Source of the DNA: a virus
Lineage: Duplodnaviria; Caudoviricetes
Virus record (IMG/VR): IMGVR_UViG_3300019371_000265
Span: 32,001-96,000 of that record
Direction: 5' to 3' (one strand)
DNA: 64,000 nt
Every line of letters begins with the position of its first letter. Position 1 is the first letter of the stretch. The notes beneath the pieces are model-generated. The model made no database searches and had not been told where the DNA came from. It saw only the letters and a list, made by a program, of their open reading frames with translations. This document shows, piece by piece, positions 2,290 to 41,298 of this stretch. The translations under genes and the position numbers were made by a program.

Positions 2290-2775
2290 TTACCGTGAAT
2301 TTAATAATTCAATTGCCTTCTTTACGTTCTTTTCTTTTAGCCCATATTTAAACGAAGTCTGTACCAATCTGTCCATATGTGGTTTCATATCATTGTCATC
2401 GTCAATAATTATGAACGACCCAACGTTCTCTCCGTTCCATTTCCTTAACCACGAATCAATTTCTTCTCCTCTGTATCCACCGGATAATATTGGTGTACGA
2501 GACATAAATTTTATTCCAAACTCGTTCATCTTTTCTTCTAATTTTGTGAAATGTTCTGCGTTTAACGACTGGTGATTATAGTCTCTGTCAAACCAACCCA
2601 TTCTCCATGTTGAAGATAAAACGATCTTGGAATCTGTGGCATCTACAATTTCTTTTAATAATTTAATCTTGTTATCGTTTACGAAGTAAATGCTTCCTAT
2701 TTTACTTCTACAACCATTAAAATTTAACACTCCATCTATATCTAAGAATATTACCTTAATGCTTATCCACCTCAC
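2290..2775 (-). CDS. HAD-superfamily domain protein (RNA-repair-associated type)
   Basis: IFLDIDGVLN motif I, IVLSSTWR, IIDD. Confidence 0.8.
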   Translation of the reverse strand: MRWISIKVIFLDIDGVLNFNGCRSKIGSIYFVNDNKIKLLKEIVDATDSKIVLSSTWRMGWFDRDYNHQSLNAEHFTKLEEKMNEFGIKFMSRTPILSGGYRGEEIDSWLRKWNGENVGSFIIIDDDNDMKPHMDRLVQTSFKYGLKEKNVKKAIELLNSR

Positions 2776-2836
2776 TTTTAATCACGGCATAATGCTCTTT
2801 GACATACTATTTTGTTTGGAAATTTTATAAGATTCA

Positions 2837-2862
2837 AAGTCTTGTTTTCCTGCGCCAACAGG
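2837..2862 (-). promoter_or_regulatory. UUGGCG hairpin + AAACAAGACUU motif
   Basis: Minus strand cctg-ttggcg-cagg-a-aaacaagactt. Confidence 0.7.
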
Positions 2863-5205: not shown

Positions 5206-6060
5206 TTATACCCATCCTTTCATCAATTCACCATTCTCATAAACTACACCATACTTATTTTTCGGTTTTCTCAGAGCATTACCAATTACTTTAGCCCCAT
5301 CTCCCAAGGAAGCCTGTAATGTTTCCTCACACATAAAGCACGATCTTTTTAATAAAACAGGAGTCTTAAATCCATCTAATATTTCATTCATATTCAGATA
5401 AGTTTGGCAACCACATGAATACGGTGATCCTAACGTTATTCCGAATACCTTTTCAAATGATACAAATACATCTTTTCCATGTTGAATCTCAGATAGCTTA
5501 ATACTATTGAATCCCATTTCATCATAATGTATCAGGCAATTAGAAATGTCGTCTTTTGTATAGAGAAACGGTTTAACAATATTTAAATTTATTCTGATTT
5601 TCTCCTTGTATGGAAGCGATGCGTAAAACTTTTGCCTATCATATTTAGATTTAGTTCTTCTAATTTCATCGGCAACGTCTTCCTGATAGTGCTGCACCGA
5701 CAAATTAATTCCGTCAAGGTGCTCGACCAGCTCCATGAATTTGTCGTATTCGTCGTAGCATATTTTCGGAACCGATGTGGTTACGTAAAGTTTTAGCGAT
5801 GTGTTATCTTTAATTCTCTTAACGCAATCTAATAGTTCATCGAGATATAAACATGGCTCTCCTCCAAGAAACAACACATCATCTAATCCATCTTGATTAT
5901 CAATTATCGTTTGCGCTATTGCATTAACATCTGGCTTCGATATGCTCATTCCTTCATAACATTTATCAATGCAGTGTGCGCAATTATTATCACAGGCACT
6001 TGTAAAATGTACATCAAACGAATTATATATCCCGTCACAGCAATTACATTTAAGTTTCAT
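5206..6060 (-). CDS. Radical SAM protein
   Basis: CDNNCAHC (CxxxCxxC) and GGEP motifs. Confidence 0.9.
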   Translation of the reverse strand: MKLKCNCCDGIYNSFDVHFTSACDNNCAHCIDKCYEGMSISKPDVNAIAQTIIDNQDGLDDVLFLGGEPCLYLDELLDCVKRIKDNTSLKLYVTTSVPKICYDEYDKFMELVEHLDGINLSVQHYQEDVADEIRRTKSKYDRQKFYASLPYKEKIRINLNIVKPFLYTKDDISNCLIHYDEMGFNSIKLSEIQHGKDVFVSFEKVFGITLGSPYSCGCQTYLNMNEILDGFKTPVLLKRSCFMCEETLQASLGDGAKVIGNALRKPKNKYGVVYENGELMKGWV

Positions 6061-6345: not shown

Positions 6346-6414
6346 ATTTTATTTCAATCTATATTTATATATTACTCCTCTTAAATAGCAATGTCAAGCA
6401 TTTTATTTCAATCT
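6346..6414 (-). promoter_or_regulatory. SigA promoter flanked by two AGATTGAAATAAAAT boxes
   Basis: TTGACA(6397-6392)-17-TAATAT; boxes 6346-6360 and 6400-6414. Confidence 0.75.
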
Positions 6415-9470: not shown

Positions 9471-9842
9471 TCAACTTTCGCATTCTTTTACAAATGTTAA
9501 TCCATAATCTTCTTCGTCTTTCTGCATTGCGTCTCCTAGACTTTTTGCTTCTGTAATATCGCAAACACATCTCACGTCTTCAGATCTACGACTTAATTCA
9601 CTAATTAAATTATCTGCACACCATGTTCCATCATTGTAATGAAAATTAACTTGTTCATTATCCCAATGCTCTGGAACCGACAACACAGTTCTAACAGTAA
9701 AATTGACCACTACGGTTTTAGATCTTATTACGCAATCATCTTTATGTTGTTCTCCTAATAATCTACCACAATAAAAACACCTATCCGGTTCACCAGCTGG
9801 TCTCGTGGAAGATTCTGTTACTGTCCAATCATTTCTAATCAT
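9471..9842 (-). CDS. Hypothetical phage protein (Cys/His motif)
   Basis: CFYC...HxxxC. Confidence 0.65.
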   Translation of the reverse strand: MIRNDWTVTESSTRPAGEPDRCFYCGRLLGEQHKDDCVIRSKTVVVNFTVRTVLSVPEHWDNEQVNFHYNDGTWCADNLISELSRRSEDVRCVCDITEAKSLGDAMQKDEEDYGLTFVKECES

Positions 9843-12181: not shown

Positions 12182-12295
12182 ACCTATTACCTATCCCTTC
12201 TCCATCAAATACGAATTTTACATCATCTGTTAACGTGCTACATCTTTCGCATTATCTCTCCTTTTAGTTTGCAACATTTTATTTCAAATTATCAG

Positions 12296-12367
12296 CAGGG
12301 CTAGTTGGATTTGAACCAACGAATGCAGGAGTCAAAGTCCTGTGCCTTACCGCTTGGCGATAGCCCT
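12296..12367 (-). tRNA. tRNA-Gln (TTG)
   Basis: Cloverleaf: acceptor agggcta/tagccct, anticodon arm cagga-ctTTGac-tcctg, T-arm gttgg-ttcaaat-ccaac. Confidence 0.95.
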
Positions 12368-12400: not shown

Positions 12401-12429
12401 TTGACTAATGCTACGAAATTTGCTATAAT
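12401..12429 (+). promoter_or_regulatory. Strong SigA promoter, antisense to the early operon
   Basis: TTGACT-17-TATAAT with TGn extended -10. Confidence 0.8.
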
Positions 12430-12435
12430 TTAATG

Positions 12436-12575
12436 GCAGTATTCCTTACTGCGGTCTTAAGCATTTCTAAATGCGGAGCCTCCTTTAATGGGTGACACCT
12501 ATGTTTATTCTTTATTGCTTAAGTCTTGTTTAAATCCCCAGGAGTGCGCCAACACGTTTGTACTGGGGATTATTT
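12436..12575 (+). ncRNA. Putative ~135-nt regulatory sRNA
   Basis: Own promoter; stems gcagta/tactgc, cttaagca/tgcttaag, atccccag/ctggggat + T-rich tail; no ORF. Confidence 0.6.
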
Positions 12576-12872
12576 TATAATCTCTAATTCTATGTATTTG
12601 TCTGGATATGTAATTGCATAATGAATAGTATTAATATCTTCTGTAAATAACACCTCCAATATTCCACTTTTAGGTATGTCGTCTAACGTTTCTACATATC
12701 TCCTGATCCTCCTTCCTTGTTTGAACAAACATTTAAATGAAATATCTGTTATAATATAATCTCCAATTTCACGAACCATCTCGTCATAGTTACACTCCCT
12801 CATCGCCGCCTCCGTTTTCGAACGTTTGTTCTTTATTAATCTTATTATAGCGCCATTTTTATCCAGTGTCAA
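12570..12872 (-). CDS. Hypothetical protein
   Basis: ORF track; start uncertain. Confidence 0.5.
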   Translation of the reverse strand: MTLDKNGAIIRLIKNKRSKTEAAMRECNYDEMVREIGDYIITDISFKCLFKQGRRIRRYVETLDDIPKSGILEVLFTEDINTIHYAITYPDKYIELEIIK

Positions 12873-12932
12873 TGTATTTTTTCGAACACTGTAAATTTTA
12901 TTTCAAACTATTAAGATGGCAACAGGAGTTGC

Positions 12933-13979
12933 CTATTTATAATAGATGCTGCTCATGATATATGGTCTATAAATTTTTCTAACATCAGTGCCTTTCAATT
13001 TATCTCCAAATTTTTCAGATATTTCTTGTAAAATCTTACACCATTCATCATTTTTATAATCATCGTATTCTACAAATATTTTGCAGAAATTAGTATCACT
13101 ATAATTGTACAATTGTCTTCGCGCAAAGTTTACGAATCCGGATTTATGAAGTAAATCTATGTTTATGTCATCATATTTAGATCCGTATGTTCCATTAATC
13201 GAAAGTAAATGTGGAATTATATCCCGAACATCTTTTGAAATAATTTTTTGTAGAACCACCTTCTTATCTTCATTGAAAGTTTCTATATACTTTTGTAAGT
13301 CCATAGTTTCATTGATTTTGCTTTTAATTAATAATCCATGAACTGACATTAATCTTAATTGATCCAAGAGAACCTTATCTTTTGATACCCTTACTTTAAT
13401 ATATACATTGTCATTAATATATCCATTTATATATGAAAAAAGTAGTTCAGATCCATGAAAGACCCTATTTTTAAATCGAATTGTATTCTCGTCAAAATTC
13501 ACATCGGTTAATTTTATATTCGCAAATTCTTTTGCGTTCCGTATACCCTCAAAAAATCCATACACCAGCATACCATAATAATTTTTATTGTATTCAATGT
13601 CTTTAATAATGTTACGTATGTCTTCCTTGTACAGTATCTTAATATCCTTCTTCTCAATTAGCGTGTTAATCAACATCTTTTGCGATAAGGCATCAAATTC
13701 AGCGAATGGATTTATAAAAGTGTATCCATTATTCACACACCATTCAAAAAATTGGTTCAGGTAACTGATGTTTTCCATGAGATATTGCATGCTCTTAGTT
13801 TTACCACACATATCTTCGATGATTAAATCAACATATTCTTTCACCTTTAAATTAAACAAATCCTTCTCATAAATATATGGCTTCATTAAAAAGGCCTTCT
13901 GTTTATCAGTATATTTCTTGTAATTACAAAAATCTTCTATCATTTTCTTATAGTCTTCTACCGTATATTTAGTACTCAT
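12933..13979 (-). CDS. MrpR/YopR-like lytic repressor (tyrosine-recombinase fold, catalytic motifs degenerate)
   Basis: FFEGIRxxxEFxNIKLTDVNFDENTI; LHKSG in place of HxxR; own promoter with operator box. Confidence 0.65.
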   Translation of the reverse strand: MSTKYTVEDYKKMIEDFCNYKKYTDKQKAFLMKPYIYEKDLFNLKVKEYVDLIIEDMCGKTKSMQYLMENISYLNQFFEWCVNNGYTFINPFAEFDALSQKMLINTLIEKKDIKILYKEDIRNIIKDIEYNKNYYGMLVYGFFEGIRNAKEFANIKLTDVNFDENTIRFKNRVFHGSELLFSYINGYINDNVYIKVRVSKDKVLLDQLRLMSVHGLLIKSKINETMDLQKYIETFNEDKKVVLQKIISKDVRDIIPHLLSINGTYGSKYDDINIDLLHKSGFVNFARRQLYNYSDTNFCKIFVEYDDYKNDEWCKILQEISEKFGDKLKGTDVRKIYRPYIMSSIYYK

Positions 13980-14008
13980 ATTTAACCTCCTATTGTCTTA
14001 TGTACTAT

Positions 14009-14051
14009 ATCATATCACAATAATAGGAAAAGGTCAATTTTATTTCAATCT
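14009..14051 (-). promoter_or_regulatory. Promoter of MrpR-like gene with operator abutting -35
   Basis: TTGACC-17-TATGAT; box 14037-14051. Confidence 0.7.
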
Positions 14052-14475
14052 ACATTGCATAAGAAAATGCAAATGAAAACTGTAGTTTAATCGCGTCGCA
14101 TATACGATTTATAACATTTCCATCTTTAATTTCTCCAATCTTACGATATAGACATTCCTTGGGTATAGAATCTGGGCTTTCAATGAGTAAAATACTATCG
14201 CTTTTCAATCCATTACAATCATCTGATGGCATATACACATGAACTGGCGACATCTTGTTTATTTTGGATGAAATCGGATAAATATTTACTTGTGAAGAAA
14301 ATTTATTAAACGTATCGTTAGACATTACCAAAACCGGTCTTCTTCCATACTGCTTGCTGCTCTTGATCCTGTCTTCTGTTTTAGGAATATAGGCATCCCA
14401 AATTTCCCCTCCTAATGGAGTAGGTATCCTCCTATAATTGTCGTCAATTCTATTTTCATTGTGCATATTTCTCAC
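14050..14475 (-). CDS. PemK/MazF-family endoribonuclease toxin (no adjacent MazE)
   Basis: GEIW...QYGRRPVLVMSNDTFNK...PISSK...GLKSDS. Confidence 0.85.
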   Translation of the reverse strand: MRNMHNENRIDDNYRRIPTPLGGEIWDAYIPKTEDRIKSSKQYGRRPVLVMSNDTFNKFSSQVNIYPISSKINKMSPVHVYMPSDDCNGLKSDSILLIESPDSIPKECLYRKIGEIKDGNVINRICDAIKLQFSFAFSYAM

Positions 14476-14549
14476 CTTATGACCTACTTATATCGGTCAC
14501 TACTCCTCTCACTATTTTTTGTTAGGGATTGTTGGTATAAATAATATCC

Positions 14550-14575
14550 AAGTCCTGTTTGCTCCGCCAAGAGCA
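14550..14575 (-). promoter_or_regulatory. UUGGCG hairpin + AAACAGGACUU motif in mazF leader
   Basis: tgctc-ttggcg-gagca-aacaggactt. Confidence 0.7.
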
Positions 14576-14598
14576 TTAGTAATTACTAACTTAATGAG

Positions 14599-14644
14599 AG
14601 TATAGCACATAAAAATATTAATGTCAACAATTTTATTTCAATCT
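14599..14644 (-). promoter_or_regulatory. mazF promoter with operator box
   Basis: TTGACA-17-TATACT, extended -10; box 14630-14644. Confidence 0.8.
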
Positions 14645-14645
14645 A

Positions 14646-15581
14646 TTACTTTATTTTTTCTTCGATGGATTTCATGATGTCATTGATAAAATCAATATGG
14701 GATTCTGCATCACAATCGGCGTTTTTAAGTCCAAATTTATATGCGTCTGCGAGTGCATTGCGTAAGTCATTCATGTCAAGTGATACTACATTGCTGTTTG
14801 AACTATTTACGATTTCATTATCTCCCTCTGCATATTCTACGAAGAATTTTCCCATATCTTCCAAGTATTCGTTCACTCTTTCACGAGTAATTCCAACATA
14901 CGCCATTGTTTGTTCGAGAGTACCATGCCCGAACATTGCGCTTACAATCATAAGTGCTCTTGGATCATTTGGGTGTAAATCAATTAAAGTTTTGCCAAGA
15001 AATTTTCGTGTACTATGCGTGTTTACGTTATAGGTTACTCCAACGCTTTTTGCAGCTTTCTTCATGTTCTGTCCACATTGTTTGAGAGTAAATAAGTCAC
15101 CTGGATGAGTATTGCCTCTATTTAGAAAAACATATTGATCATATTCTTCCATTGGCTTGATATCAAACGCCGAGCAATATAACCTTATTGCATTTCTCAC
15201 AGCTTCATTGATGTATGGACTTGCAAATTTATCCGTCTTTTCTTCTTTTATTGTAAGAATTTCCTTTCTAAAGTGACCATTTGGAAGGAAAAATCTTCTC
15301 CAAGTAAAAAGTCTAGTATCTCCGGCTCTTCGTCCCATATTGCAACCAATTACAAACCATAGATAATTTTGCCACATTTTGTGTTCTTTAAAAAATTTAA
15401 GTATATTTCTTGCATCTTCAATAGTAAATGCATAAACTTCAGCTTGTTTGCCTGGCTGCTTATTTAGTACTTTTCCATTTTTAGCATATAACATTTGATT
15501 ATCCACTACAATATAATCATATCCCATTTCTTCATCAAATTTCACATCGTACTCTTTTTTCTTATATGTTATCTTGCTCAT
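14646..15581 (-). CDS. Tyrosine recombinase/integrase (catalytic set intact)
   Basis: GRRAGD (R), KEEKT (K), HSTRK (HxxR), FGH...TMAY (H, Y); start MSKIT after AAGGAG. Confidence 0.88.
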   Translation of the reverse strand: MSKITYKKKEYDVKFDEEMGYDYIVVDNQMLYAKNGKVLNKQPGKQAEVYAFTIEDARNILKFFKEHKMWQNYLWFVIGCNMGRRAGDTRLFTWRRFFLPNGHFRKEILTIKEEKTDKFASPYINEAVRNAIRLYCSAFDIKPMEEYDQYVFLNRGNTHPGDLFTLKQCGQNMKKAAKSVGVTYNVNTHSTRKFLGKTLIDLHPNDPRALMIVSAMFGHGTLEQTMAYVGITRERVNEYLEDMGKFFVEYAEGDNEIVNSSNSNVVSLDMNDLRNALADAYKFGLKNADCDAESHIDFINDIMKSIEEKIK

Positions 15582-15621
15582 GACTGCTCCTTTCTGCGTC
15601 AAATGTCACATTGACTGACTG

Positions 15622-16158
15622 TTAATTATTGTCTAATTCTGATACCATTTTTCTAACTCGTTCTATCTCGCTGCTCGCATGAGGTGTCCCACCTGCATTC
15701 ATATCTATATACCACTGTAGAACTTCTTTTTCGGTTTTAAGATCATTTATGTTTATTTTCATGGTATATCTCAATTTCGGTCTATCTTCAAATTCTGAAA
15801 AATACGTATTAAATATTCGGATTTCATTATTCACAAAACGTTGAAAGGCTGTTATGCGCTGTAGTCCATCAACGCATACATAGTCATTGTATTCATAATT
15901 TTCAACTCTTAAATGCCAATCTGGCTTATTAAAATAGATAATTGTCCCAGATTTACCTCCTTTGAAGAAGTATTCTAAGTATGAGATTTGTTGTTGTTCT
16001 GTCCACACATGCCCTCTCTGGAAATCAGGGTTAAGCTGTAAACCAGATTCCTCTATCTGCTCATTTATCCATTTAACTAAATACTCAATGTCAAAATCGC
16101 ATTGCCAGTTTCCATCTCTGGTGAATTGTGGAATATCTTTAAATCTATTTATTTTCAT
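15622..16158 (-). CDS. DUF262 (ParB-like) domain protein
   Basis: LNPDFQRGHVW...VDGLQR...MNAGG. Confidence 0.85.
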   Translation of the reverse strand: MKINRFKDIPQFTRDGNWQCDFDIEYLVKWINEQIEESGLQLNPDFQRGHVWTEQQQISYLEYFFKGGKSGTIIYFNKPDWHLRVENYEYNDYVCVDGLQRITAFQRFVNNEIRIFNTYFSEFEDRPKLRYTMKININDLKTEKEVLQWYIDMNAGGTPHASSEIERVRKMVSELDNN

Positions 16159-26180: not shown

Positions 26181-26287
26181 TTGACTTAATTCAGAGAATT
26201 GATATAATAGAAGTAAGTCAACGTGTTAAACGTTTGGCGGCGTGGATAGCGGTTTCTGTTCTTGGTCGGATGGAACCGCTATTTTTA
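26181..26287 (+). ncRNA. Putative short antisense RNA with promoter and terminator upstream of antirepressor
   Basis: TTGACT-16-TATAAT (TGn); hairpin acgt-ttggcg-gcgt; terminator atagcggtttc...gaaccgctat-ttttt. Confidence 0.5.
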
Positions 26288-34019: not shown

Positions 34020-34051
34020 GGTATTTGGCGATACCAGTTAAAACAGGACTT
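34020..34051 (+). promoter_or_regulatory. UUGGCG hairpin + AAACAGGACUU motif
   Basis: ggtat-ttggcg-atacc-agtta-aaacaggactt. Confidence 0.7.
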
Positions 34052-34225
34052 GAAGTTTGTATCAGATTAATAATCCAGATAAAATGTAACAGAAAATTAT
34101 GTAAGGAAAATATAGATGATAAAGGTGTTTTTCTGCGAAGATTTAACGTGAGTTAAGTCGAAGCAATAAGTACTCTTTTTATATATATTCTTTCTTTACA
34201 GGGGACTGTAAAAATTAATGGTGAA

Positions 34226-36255: not shown

Positions 36256-36285
36256 AGGCATTGGCGTGCCTGTAGAACAAGACTT
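36256..36285 (+). promoter_or_regulatory. UUGGCG hairpin + GAACAAGACUU motif upstream of RNAP gene
   Basis: aggca-ttggcg-tgcct-gta-gaacaagactt. Confidence 0.7.
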
Positions 36286-36341
36286 TGATGCAGAAATAAA
36301 ATCCATTATAAAATAAAAATAACTAGATAAGGGAGCATTTA

Positions 36342-39855: not shown

Positions 39856-41298
39856 GTGGTTTTGACCATCGCAAAGAAAAAAGACAAAATTACGGTATCA
39901 TTTGTTGATGAACCTGCCAGTGAAGACGTAACGGGTAGCTGTGTTTATGTTGAAACTCCAAATCATAAGTTATTGTTGGATTTTGGTTTACATCAGTCAA
40001 ATTGTAAATATGATGATTTCTTAGTAAACAATAGAAAACCTGCGAAATTCAAAGCAAAAGATATTGATTTGGTGTTTATATCACATTTGCACGGCGATCA
40101 CTGTCTCGCGGTTCCAAAGTTATACAGAGATGGATTTAGAGGAGCTACGGTGCTTCCCATGAACTCTAAAAGCGTATTTAAGACTATGGAAAGTGATTCG
40201 GCATATATTGCAGAACGGGATATAGTCGTTATAAACACTCAAAATAATAAAAATTATAGTCCACTTTATGATATATCAGACGTAAATACAATGCTTGAAT
40301 ACACGATTGAACGACCAATTAATAAGAAAATCATGATAGATGACGAATTATCATTCATGTTTGTTCCAAGCGGTCATTTGCTTAATAGCTGCCAGATTGT
40401 TTTATATATTACGGTTGATGGATTAACCAAAACAATCGTATATACGGGTGATATCGGAAATAAAAACATAGATAATTATTTTGTTGGAAAGTTTGAATCA
40501 GTGCCATCATGCGATTTACTAATTGGTGAATCTACATACGGCGATAGACCTGACTTAAAAACTGGCAAAAAAGAACGTGAAAATGATTTAAATAAGTTGA
40601 AGTCAATCATTGATACTCAGATTAAAGAAATGAACGGGCGTGTACTCATTCCTTCATTTGCTCAATCTAGGATTCAACAGTTAGCATTAATGGTATATGA
40701 ACTTTACAAAGATGAGCCATGGCAGCCAAAGGTATACATTGATTCTCCTCTTGCAATTTCAATATTTAAAGATTATGCGGAAATATTGGAAGGTGAGGAC
40801 AAGAAGAAATTCGATGAAATGCTTAAATGGGATAATTTAGTGTTCGTAAAAGAACCAGAATCCAGTAAAGCACTGGTATCTTCCCCTGAACCTTGCTGCA
40901 TCATGAGCACAGCGGGAATGTGCCAGGTTGGAAGGGTACGTCATCATTTAAAGGCTTTAGTTGGAAATCCTAACGCTACTATCCTGTTCGTTGGATTTAG
41001 TACTGAAGGTAGTCTTGCGAGCATGTTAAAGGATAATAAGAGAAAAACAATCACCATCGACACGAAAGAATATAATTGTAGATGCAGTTCTTATAGTTTA
41101 AAAAGCATGTCTGGTCATGCTCCATTTGACCAATTAGTGAATATTTATTCATCTGTGAATTGTAATAAGATTGTGCTGCATCATGGAAGTAAACAAGCAA
41201 AAGAGACGTTGGCTACTGCATTGAAAAAAGAATTAGAAAATAAATGCAAATCTACAAGAGTAGTCGTTGCTAATTCAAGTTTGAAATTCTCATTATAA
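39856..41298 (+). CDS. MBL-fold beta-CASP nuclease
   Basis: TGSC, DFG, SHLHGDH, GH, YTGD, ESTYG, SGHA. Confidence 0.9.
   Translation: MVLTIAKKKDKITVSFVDEPASEDVTGSCVYVETPNHKLLLDFGLHQSNCKYDDFLVNNRKPAKFKAKDIDLVFISHLHGDHCLAVPKLYRDGFRGATVLPMNSKSVFKTMESDSAYIAERDIVVINTQNNKNYSPLYDISDVNTMLEYTIERPINKKIMIDDELSFMFVPSGHLLNSCQIVLYITVDGLTKTIVYTGDIGNKNIDNYFVGKFESVPSCDLLIGESTYGDRPDLKTGKKERENDLNKLKSIIDTQIKEMNGRVLIPSFAQSRIQQLALMVYELYKDEPWQPKVYIDSPLAISIFKDYAEILEGEDKKKFDEMLKWDNLVFVKEPESSKALVSSPEPCCIMSTAGMCQVGRVRHHLKALVGNPNATILFVGFSTEGSLASMLKDNKRKTITIDTKEYNCRCSSYSLKSMSGHAPFDQLVNIYSSVNCNKIVLHHGSKQAKETLATALKKELENKCKSTRVVVANSSLKFSL

Follow-up and report, generated by a model that had tools for sequence, protein, structure and literature searches.

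Introduction

The best described relatives of the locus reported here are the sro operons (sroA-F, the same genes as yopM-R) of the Bacillus phages SPbeta and phi3T, which bring together the repressor SroF (also called MrpR or YopR), SPBRE operators and host MazEF (PMC10516654; PMC10769878; bioRxiv 10.1101/2025.11.27.690993). MrpR binds SPBRE (PMC10516654), and in phi3T the host MazF promotes lysogeny (PMC10769878). Here we describe a locus in which a gene for a SroF/MrpR-like protein directly follows a mazF gene carried by the phage itself. It lies in a 64,000-nucleotide window (bases 32001-96000) of the 126,319-base IMG/VR provirus record IMGVR_UViG_3300019371_000265 (~33% GC), and our literature search found no paper on a phage-encoded MazF inside a SroF/MrpR module. 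The explanation that best fits the data overall, to which we give an even chance, is that the SroF-like repressor, a dispersed repeat, a small RNA (sRNA) and the phage MazF form one lysogeny-control module.

Several features of the locus recall the sro system: its integrase-fold repressor best matches the structures of SroF, YopR and MrpR, copies of a long and asymmetric operator-like repeat with an A-tract are scattered through the ~126-kb phage, just upstream in the operon there is a recombinase-like gene, and a functional tie to MazF would be common to both. The upstream recombinase-like position is one that we take to be held by yopP in SPbeta, and the phage mazF presumably occupies the position of yopQ. 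Unlike in SPbeta and phi3T, MazF is phage-encoded and sits inside the module, no AimR was found in the record, there is no sequence-level match to SPbeta proteins, an sRNA with dispersed targets is added, and the relatives of the locus indicate gut Clostridia-type hosts and not Bacillus.

Phages also use small RNAs as part of their immunity: the c4 immunity RNA of P1/P7 and the sar RNA of P22 act through short complementary stretches on phage messages. The sRNA described here would act in the same way, but its targets would be scattered over several operons, that of the toxin gene among them, as copies of a single two-part element, and it has no sequence relation to c4 or sar. The locus resembles type I toxin-antitoxin systems in that a small RNA with a promoter of its own has complementarity to the 5' region of the toxin message, in the combination of loop-loop contact and linear helix typical of such pairs; in contrast to these systems, the toxin is a type II-family RNase and not a small hydrophobic membrane peptide, and the sRNA, whose gene is 2 kb distant and free of overlap with the toxin gene, forms no dedicated one-locus pair with it and has at least five further putative targets. 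Type III (ToxIN-like) systems resemble the locus in that an RNA would antagonise an endoribonuclease toxin, but no tandem-repeat RNA is seen upstream of the toxin gene here, and the antagonism would run through mRNA pairing, not protein binding. Taken together, we see the system as an SPbeta-type switch to which RNA control in the style of type I systems or of c4 would have been joined.

Results

A SroF/MrpR-like gene lies directly downstream of a phage mazF

The region studied consists of four minus-strand genes, encoding a GmrSD_N-domain protein, a tyrosine-recombinase-like protein, MazF and a 348-amino-acid protein. The last three, with their control elements, are the following (coordinates are those of the window unless the genome or a locus is named):

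14646-15602, minus strand: tyrosine-recombinase-like gene, 311-318 amino acids, first gene of the trio, with an acidic tail of ~65 residues after the putative catalytic Tyr
14628-14645, minus strand: copy of the 18-mer repeat TAGATTGAAATAAAATTG, abutting the mazF -35 hexamer
14599-14627, minus strand: mazF promoter of the sigma-A type, TTGACA (14627-14622), 17 nt, TATACT (14604-14599), with a TG extension
~14592-14467, minus strand: mazF 5' leader, ~125 nt (from promoter position, alignment and consensus fold)
14050-14466, minus strand: MazF/PemK endoribonuclease gene, 138 amino acids (Pfam, PHROG and PDB matches)
14009-14052, minus strand: promoter of the repressor-like gene, TTGACC, 17 nt, TATGAT, with an overlapping repeat copy at 14035-14052
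At about the repressor transcription start, minus strand: GUACAUAA, with UACAU at 14004
12933-13979, minus strand: SroF/MrpR-fold repressor-like gene, 348 amino acids (AlphaFold model and Foldseek)

The 348-amino-acid protein has no Pfam match of its own, and phmmer searches of PDB with it and with the 318-residue recombinase-like protein gave nothing useful. A tblastn search of 50,697 phage records found no match either, which leaves the protein unconnected by direct sequence similarity to SPbeta YopR. Its AlphaFold2 model, in contrast, was of high quality by both of the program's scores (pLDDT 93.4, pTM 0.89), and the top six Foldseek matches were 9rd5, 9rgl, 8bpz, 8a0a and two chains of 8bj6, that is, phi3T SroF bound to DNA (9rd5, TM 0.65/0.70), the SroF-Sar complex, YopR and MrpR, with ordinary recombinases next. 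The protein is predicted from this model to have the two-domain (core-binding, CB, and catalytic, CAT) tyrosine-recombinase fold, in the form closest to SroF/MrpR, which agrees with an earlier reading of the sequence alone that had placed mazF directly upstream of an MrpR-like gene.

An exhaustive HMMER search collected 54 representatives of the repressor family, 305-365 amino acids long. Among the 50 that were aligned, Pfam recognised MrpR_N_CB in six (best 1.4e-25), MrpR_C_cat in one and Phage_integrase in seven, and orthologues of the window protein carry weak or faint precomputed MrpR-domain matches. Judged from the sequence alignment only, the Arg-I position varies among the relatives (R, K or C) and an HxxR box is not seen. 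A profile search of genome contigs with the repressor alignment returned zero relatives.

The MazF open reading frame (ORF) spans 14050-14475, and its likely start is the ATG at 14466, which is preceded by AAGGTGA. The protein matches Pfam PemK_toxin (PF02452; 58.7 bits, E 7.5e-16, cut-off 23.1), the PHROG 'MazF-like growth inhibitor' (3.7e-18) and, among PDB sequences, B. subtilis and S. aureus MazF (~5e-9). The catalytic residues R25/T48 of B. subtilis MazF align with R46/S69 of the phage protein; across its relatives the R46 position is invariant and position 69 is S or T. From these alignments, the phage MazF is catalytically plausible.

Both hexamers of the mazF promoter are invariant in four relatives; the spacer drifts. 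With the repeat copy abutting its -35, the gene has the operator-associated promoter of its own that had been proposed. The leader had been described as structured and ~115 nt long: at ~125 nt it does hold two small hairpins, the only ones retained in an RNAalifold consensus, but the whole-leader fold was no better than that of shuffled sequences (z = -1.0; 31 of 200 shuffles equally good). The 5' 50 nt of the leader are much better conserved among relatives than the mazF coding sequence. The leader is made up as follows, all on the minus strand:

14589-14576: 5' hairpin
14574-14548: dispersed element, described below
14511-14503: invariant UGAGAGGAG
14500-14479: hairpin

A repeat like the SroF box marks the mazF and repressor promoters

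Allowing up to three mismatches, TAGATTGAAATAAAATTG matches nine times in the window against 0.70 expected, and the 126-kb record holds 13 copies, each oriented as the local transcription. The second exact copy at 14035-14052 overlaps both the mazF stop codon and the -35 of the repressor promoter. At each of four other promoters a pair of copies encloses the hexamers, the first ahead of the -35 and the second behind the -10. The repeat has TTAA...AAATAAAATT in common with the 26-bp SroF box published for phi3T when that box is reverse-complemented. Because of this shared sequence and the SroF/MrpR-like fold of the 348-amino-acid protein, we read the 13-copy repeat as the putative operator of this SroF-like protein.

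The four two-copy promoters are at genome positions 11290/11342 and 25642/25696 and at window positions 6361/6415 and 33856/33914, with the copies 52-58 bp apart. The 33856/33914 pair brackets the rightward early promoter, and the 6361/6415 pair lies just upstream of an ORF at 5206-6060.

MazF has joined this kind of repressor module repeatedly

We compared the record (G000) with the loci listed below, where MazF percentages are identities to the window protein in a multiple alignment.

G001, a 92%-identical relative (loci L003 and L004), at L003: MazF 93%; recombinase-MazF-repressor
L005, from an NCBI metagenome-assembled genome: MazF 76%; recombinase-MazF-repressor
L006-L009, ENA/Logan contigs: MazF 63%; recombinase-MazF-repressor
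L049, deep lineage: repressor 33%; recombinase-MazF-repressor
L071/L072, third lineage: repressor 30%; RHH gene, unrelated MazF, 115-amino-acid gene, recombinase and repressor in one tight operon
L048, L070 and L073, MazF-less lineages: repressor beside a gene for a YonO-like RNA-dependent RNA polymerase (RdRP); no recombinase, no MazF

The trio was thus found in two diverged lineages, and the third lineage has a rearranged operon whose 115-amino-acid and RHH proteins have no counterpart in the genome studied. That MazF has joined this kind of repressor module repeatedly is the strongest argument for its having a functional part in the switch.

The recombinase-like protein is recognised by Pfam Phage_integrase (27.9 bits) and a PHROG integrase family (4.4e-23); its R..HxxR..H..Y residues were identified by eye only. 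Tail included, it is 57-76% identical in the relatives. In L049 the recombinase is better conserved (57%) than the repressor (33%), and an acidic extension of ~65 residues after the Tyr is unusual among tyrosine recombinases. A megablast search of phages with the locus gave zero matches, PADLOC had none for MazF, recombinase or repressor, and a metagenome scan with MazF found only relatives of up to 45% identity.

No MazE accompanies the phage MazF

The phage was claimed to own a MazF that lacks a partner MazE, and this was the case: no MazE/PemI-type antitoxin gene adjoins mazF, the 170-nt gap upstream of it has no conserved ORF, and AbrB-type MazE (PF04014) has no match across the 126-kb record. 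Nor does the leader encode an antitoxin, as had also been stated. A 30-codon leader ORF was rejected as a candidate, having no Shine-Dalgarno (SD) sequence and, in L007, a lost ATG and a gained stop, and so was a 9-11-codon leader ORF that is not conserved and likewise has no SD.

A third leader ORF was noted in passing. The invariant, SD-like UGAGAGGAG stands 2 nt before a start codon in the window, L003, L005 and L007 (GTG, ATG, TTG and GTG). This start, which is too close to the SD for normal initiation and sits within the stem of a conserved hairpin, opens a 7-codon ORF (14479-14511, minus strand) that ends 10-15 nt ahead of the mazF ATG. In L005 a 1-nt insertion joins the ORF in frame to MazF, and the mazF of L007 has no SD of its own. 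The 7-codon ORF may be a translational throttle or a termination-reinitiation device.

One further gene next to the module deserves mention as a candidate antirepressor or antitoxin:

12570-12806, minus strand: fast-evolving 78-amino-acid protein, with a consensus promoter at 12872-12844 and a repeat copy at 12893-12910

It has no match in Pfam, PHROG or PADLOC. We consider it possible, though doubtful, that a protein and not an RNA neutralises MazF, be it host MazE, a small phage protein like AimX or YosL, the 78-amino-acid protein or the acidic tail of the recombinase. AimX and YosL of phi3T do bind MazF (PMC10769878). The recombinase tail is encoded directly upstream of mazF, the canonical position of an antitoxin, and is kept down to 57% overall identity; however, a 170-nt gap and a separate promoter part the two genes. 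The 78-amino-acid protein is syntenic in the lineage of the window and weakly similar in L049. L049 also has a 21-codon acidic ORF with an SD overlapping the mazF start, and the third lineage has the RHH gene upstream of its MazF. Yet none of the candidates matches a known antitoxin family, and the searches of the record for a MazE-type gene were negative.

The ORF in L049 (2359-2424, plus strand) overlaps the mazF start by 11 nt, encodes an acidic/aromatic C-terminus, EYGEMEYYDSG, and might be a mini-antitoxin gene or a coupling ORF.

A dispersed RNA element has one of its six copies in the mazF leader

Listing all TTGGCG sequences in the genome showed that the conserved block of the mazF leader, around position 14550, belongs to a two-part element that occurs six times, always on the transcribed strand. 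Each copy consists of a 4-5-bp stem closing a UUGGCG loop, then 0-6 nt, then AAACA(A/G)GAC(U/C)U (linear half also written AAACAGGACUU or AAACARGACUU), and those not at mazF lie in intergenic stretches at or ahead of other operons:

14548-14574, minus strand: mazF leader; stem GCUC/GAGC, loop UUGGCG (14570-14565), AAACAGGACUUGG (14560-14548)
34020-34053, plus strand: rightward-operon leader, downstream of the promoter flanked by repeats 33856 and 33914; stem GGUAU/AUACC, loop UUGGCG, AAACAGGACUUGA
36256-36288, plus strand: ahead of a 997-amino-acid gene; stem AGGCA/UGCCU
2834-2862, minus strand: ahead of a HAD_SAK_2 gene; stem CCUG/CAGG
Genome positions 9550 and 24209: two more copies

In the aligned stems 96.4% of cells are paired, compared with 52.8% in shuffles and 34-46% in slid controls, and four of the five stem pairs show changes on both sides. 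The leader hairpin GCUC-UUGGCG-GAGC is thereby a member of a strongly covarying family. A covariance model found exactly these six copies in the genome and five in G001. Scans of viral sequences with the leader motif and the sRNA apex returned the known relative only, apart from chance matches in coding sequence. Rfam gave only noise on the mazF leader, and no type III-like tandem repeats are visible when the leader sequence is read directly.

A further UUGGCG-loop hairpin with an ACGU/GCGU stem occurs at 26224-26250 (plus strand) in the spacer of an RHH-antirepressor module, without the AAACARGACUU tail; it could also kiss the loop of the sRNA described next.

A seventh element copy, with an atypical 12-nt spacer, is the antisense of an sRNA gene that lies 2 kb from mazF on the opposite strand:

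12401-12578, plus strand: trans sRNA gene; promoter TTGACT, 17 nt, TATAAT (12401-12429), RNA ~12436-12578, ~140 nt
12521-12531, plus strand: linear seed of the sRNA, AAGUCUUGUUU
12547-12552, plus strand: CGCCAA, at the apex of the terminator hairpin of the sRNA

The sRNA promoter matches 11 of 12 consensus positions, the terminator is strong, and the fold has z = -3.08. The gene has counterparts in four relatives and is kept at the same place in G001, L005 and L006, its terminator stem covaries and the apex GGAGUGCGCCAACAC is nearly invariant. Rfam assigned the region to no family, returning only noise and the neighbouring tRNA.

Both halves of the element are complementary to this RNA, through a 6-nt loop-loop match and, at the mazF leader, a 13-bp helix. 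The record, L005 and L006 have an identical seed, which pairs with 12-13 contiguous positions of the mazF leader. In G001 the seed has four changes (GAGGUCUGUUU), one of which turns the base opposite leader position 8 from U to G; position 8 itself is changed there from A to U in the mazF leader and from A to C in the rightward leader, and each pairs with the new G. All 13 bp are thereby kept for the mazF and rightward leaders in both the record and G001, and non-cognate combinations of sRNA and leader from the two mismatch at position 8. The compensatory evidence for pairing between sRNA and mazF leader, read from the sequences, is real but thin.

These data bear on the proposal that MazF is controlled at the RNA level through the element near 14550, with a possible RNA antitoxin. 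The element is indeed complementary at two sites to a conserved trans-encoded sRNA, with one compensatory position; it is not private to MazF, being one of six copies. A dedicated RNA antitoxin is disfavoured: two diverged lineages have the sRNA too, with no copy of the element in their MazF leaders, and there is no type III-like array or Rfam family. What is plausible from these sequence comparisons is RNA-level control of MazF by a multi-target phage RNA.

Two side observations concern the sRNA locus. An anti-SD-like stretch of the sRNA, CCUCCUUU (12479-12486, plus strand), could form 7 base pairs with the invariant AGAGGAG of the mazF leader; it is not conserved in the sRNAs of the relatives. 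The gene is also adjoined by a tRNA:

12295-12367, minus strand: tRNA-Gln(UUG)

In the MazF-bearing lineages a tRNA follows the sRNA locus also at L005 7166-7240, L006 2440-2513, L049 4462-4533 and L072 5361-5435. It is tRNA-Gln(UUG) in three lineages and tRNA-Met in the third lineage (L071/L072), and none was found in the G001 locus L004 or in the three MazF-less repressor loci. Sequences reminiscent of the sRNA loop and the element seed occur in the tRNA-Gln, as CGCCAA in the D-loop and as ACAGGACUUUGA in the anticodon arm; a tie to a possible tRNA target of MazF is speculation.

Cleavage motif and arbitrium

UACAU is the cleavage motif of B. subtilis MazF and may not be that of the phage enzyme. 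One UACAU (14004) lies where the repressor message is predicted to begin, at the GUACAUAA that is kept in four lineages, and another 57 nt past the repressor stop (12876). The two coding sequences are free of it, against ~2.3 sites expected; with so low an expectation the absence is not significant. The sequence-only reading recognised no aimR/aimP in the window, and a search for AimR (NF038310) extended this to the 126-kb record, estimated to be 86% complete. A YonO-type RdRP was likewise without a match in the record.

Weighing the evidence

Several observations speak against the module as we propose it. The covariation comes from one divergent relative and amounts to essentially one compensatory column, seen in two targets; the other three changes in the G001 sRNA are transitions tolerated by wobble pairing, and three other G001 elements keep the old sequence and mismatch that phage's sRNA seed. 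Since the sRNA is antisense to a copy of the element, much of its complementarity to the others follows from conservation of the family. By a contiguous-run complementarity score the mazF leader is not among the top 30 genomic matches of the sRNA, the whole-molecule duplex energy against shuffled leaders was not significant (16 of 300), and the pairing site lies at least 40 nt upstream of the mazF ribosome-binding site. In L049 and L072 there is still an sRNA-like terminator whose apex is CGCCAA, and their MazF leaders have no element; in its place at mazF stand the 21-codon ORF in L049 and the RHH gene in L072. The sRNA thus appears general to the module, and its control of MazF, if real, specific to a lineage. 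UACAU, with the proviso above, was not depleted in phage genes, where depletion of the cleavage motif had been suggested as a check. Finally, lone MazF-like genes are common in phages (52 phage records hold related genes, in varied contexts).

Some of these points would suit a different explanation, in which the UUGGCG hairpins are bound by a protein (antiterminator, processing nuclease or RNA chaperone, for example), the sRNA is only an antisense transcript over one copy, or a decoy for that protein, and no functional pairing with mazF takes place. Loop and linear motif are conserved as sequence in all copies, as expected of a protein site, the three mismatching G001 elements included, and the layout of hairpin plus linear box in operon leaders is nut-site-like. 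We nevertheless judge this explanation unlikely, as the sRNA has its own near-consensus promoter and a terminator that presents CGCCAA at its apex, the copy antisense to it has the atypical spacer, and the position-8 changes in two separate targets fit the changed sRNA base.

We likewise give little credence to the idea that recombinase and MazF are maintenance or defence cargo (a Xer-like dimer resolvase with an addiction, abortive-infection or superinfection-exclusion toxin) with no part in the lysis-lysogeny decision: the PHROG category of such MazFs is 'moron / host takeover', lone relatives abound and a GmrSD_N/NsnA-like gene lies just upstream (15622-16158, minus strand, next to the recombinase-like gene), but three lineages tie MazF to a SroF-like repressor module, in two gene orders and with MazFs from two unrelated subfamilies, the repressor lineages without MazF have no recombinase either, the phage's own regulatory repeat and RNA element are present at the promoter and in the leader of mazF, and the record is classed as an integrated provirus.

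Further features of the record

Genes lie on the minus strand left of ~32 kb and on the plus strand to the right. A beta-CASP/RMMBL RNase-J-like protein is encoded at 39856-41298 (plus strand), and a protein with the HAD_SAK_2 'RNA repair' domain at 2290-2775 (minus strand), preceded by one of the element copies; RNA metabolism seems to be a prominent function of this phage. Among the sequencing runs listed as containing the sequence none is of RNA, and the single DNA run, a faeces metagenome, may be the sample from which the record came.

Discussion

The observations above place a phage mazF within a module whose role we see as lysogeny control of a ~126-kb SPbeta-type temperate phage of a gut Firmicute host, a view that we hold to be evenly poised between right and wrong. 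In the scheme that follows we infer every binding event, and the direction of every effect, from the gene identities, repeats, elements, complementarity and synteny observed. The SroF-like protein would bind the repeat and control the transcription of mazF along with that of its own gene: in the lysogen, promoters with a copy on either side would be shut off, and the mazF and repressor promoters, with a single copy at the -35 of each (abutting at mazF, overlapping at the repressor), would be co-regulated. A constitutive sRNA would pair with the mazF message through the kissing loop and the 13-bp linear helix, limit its stability or translation, and likewise damp the rightward-operon leader and other operons. 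The sRNA would in this way serve as functional antidote in place of the missing MazE, yet be a general immunity RNA of the phage and not a dedicated antitoxin. MazF, by cutting selected messages, might then bias the lysis-lysogeny decision, as host MazF does for the Bacillus arbitrium phages.

The most far-reaching form of this scheme remains tentative, and we regard it as rather improbable: that one sRNA reads a two-part code (UUGGCG kissing loop plus AAACARGACUU seed) at several operons and is both an RNA immunity factor and the only antidote to the phage MazF, which would amount to type I-style control of a type II-family toxin in an SPbeta-type switch without arbitrium. If true, the dispersed UUGGCG elements with the sRNA that matches them would add a new case of phage immunity based on RNA and spanning several operons, and one in which an RNase toxin is restrained by RNA instead of a protein antitoxin.

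The same type of repressor is found with a MazF of its own in the phage studied here and in at least two further lineages, with MazFs of two unrelated subfamilies, which suggests that the link between MazF and repressor is general and selected and not a peculiarity of B. subtilis. Such phages are compact systems for direct tests, since a single DNA stretch carries the toxin, the repressor and the regulators.

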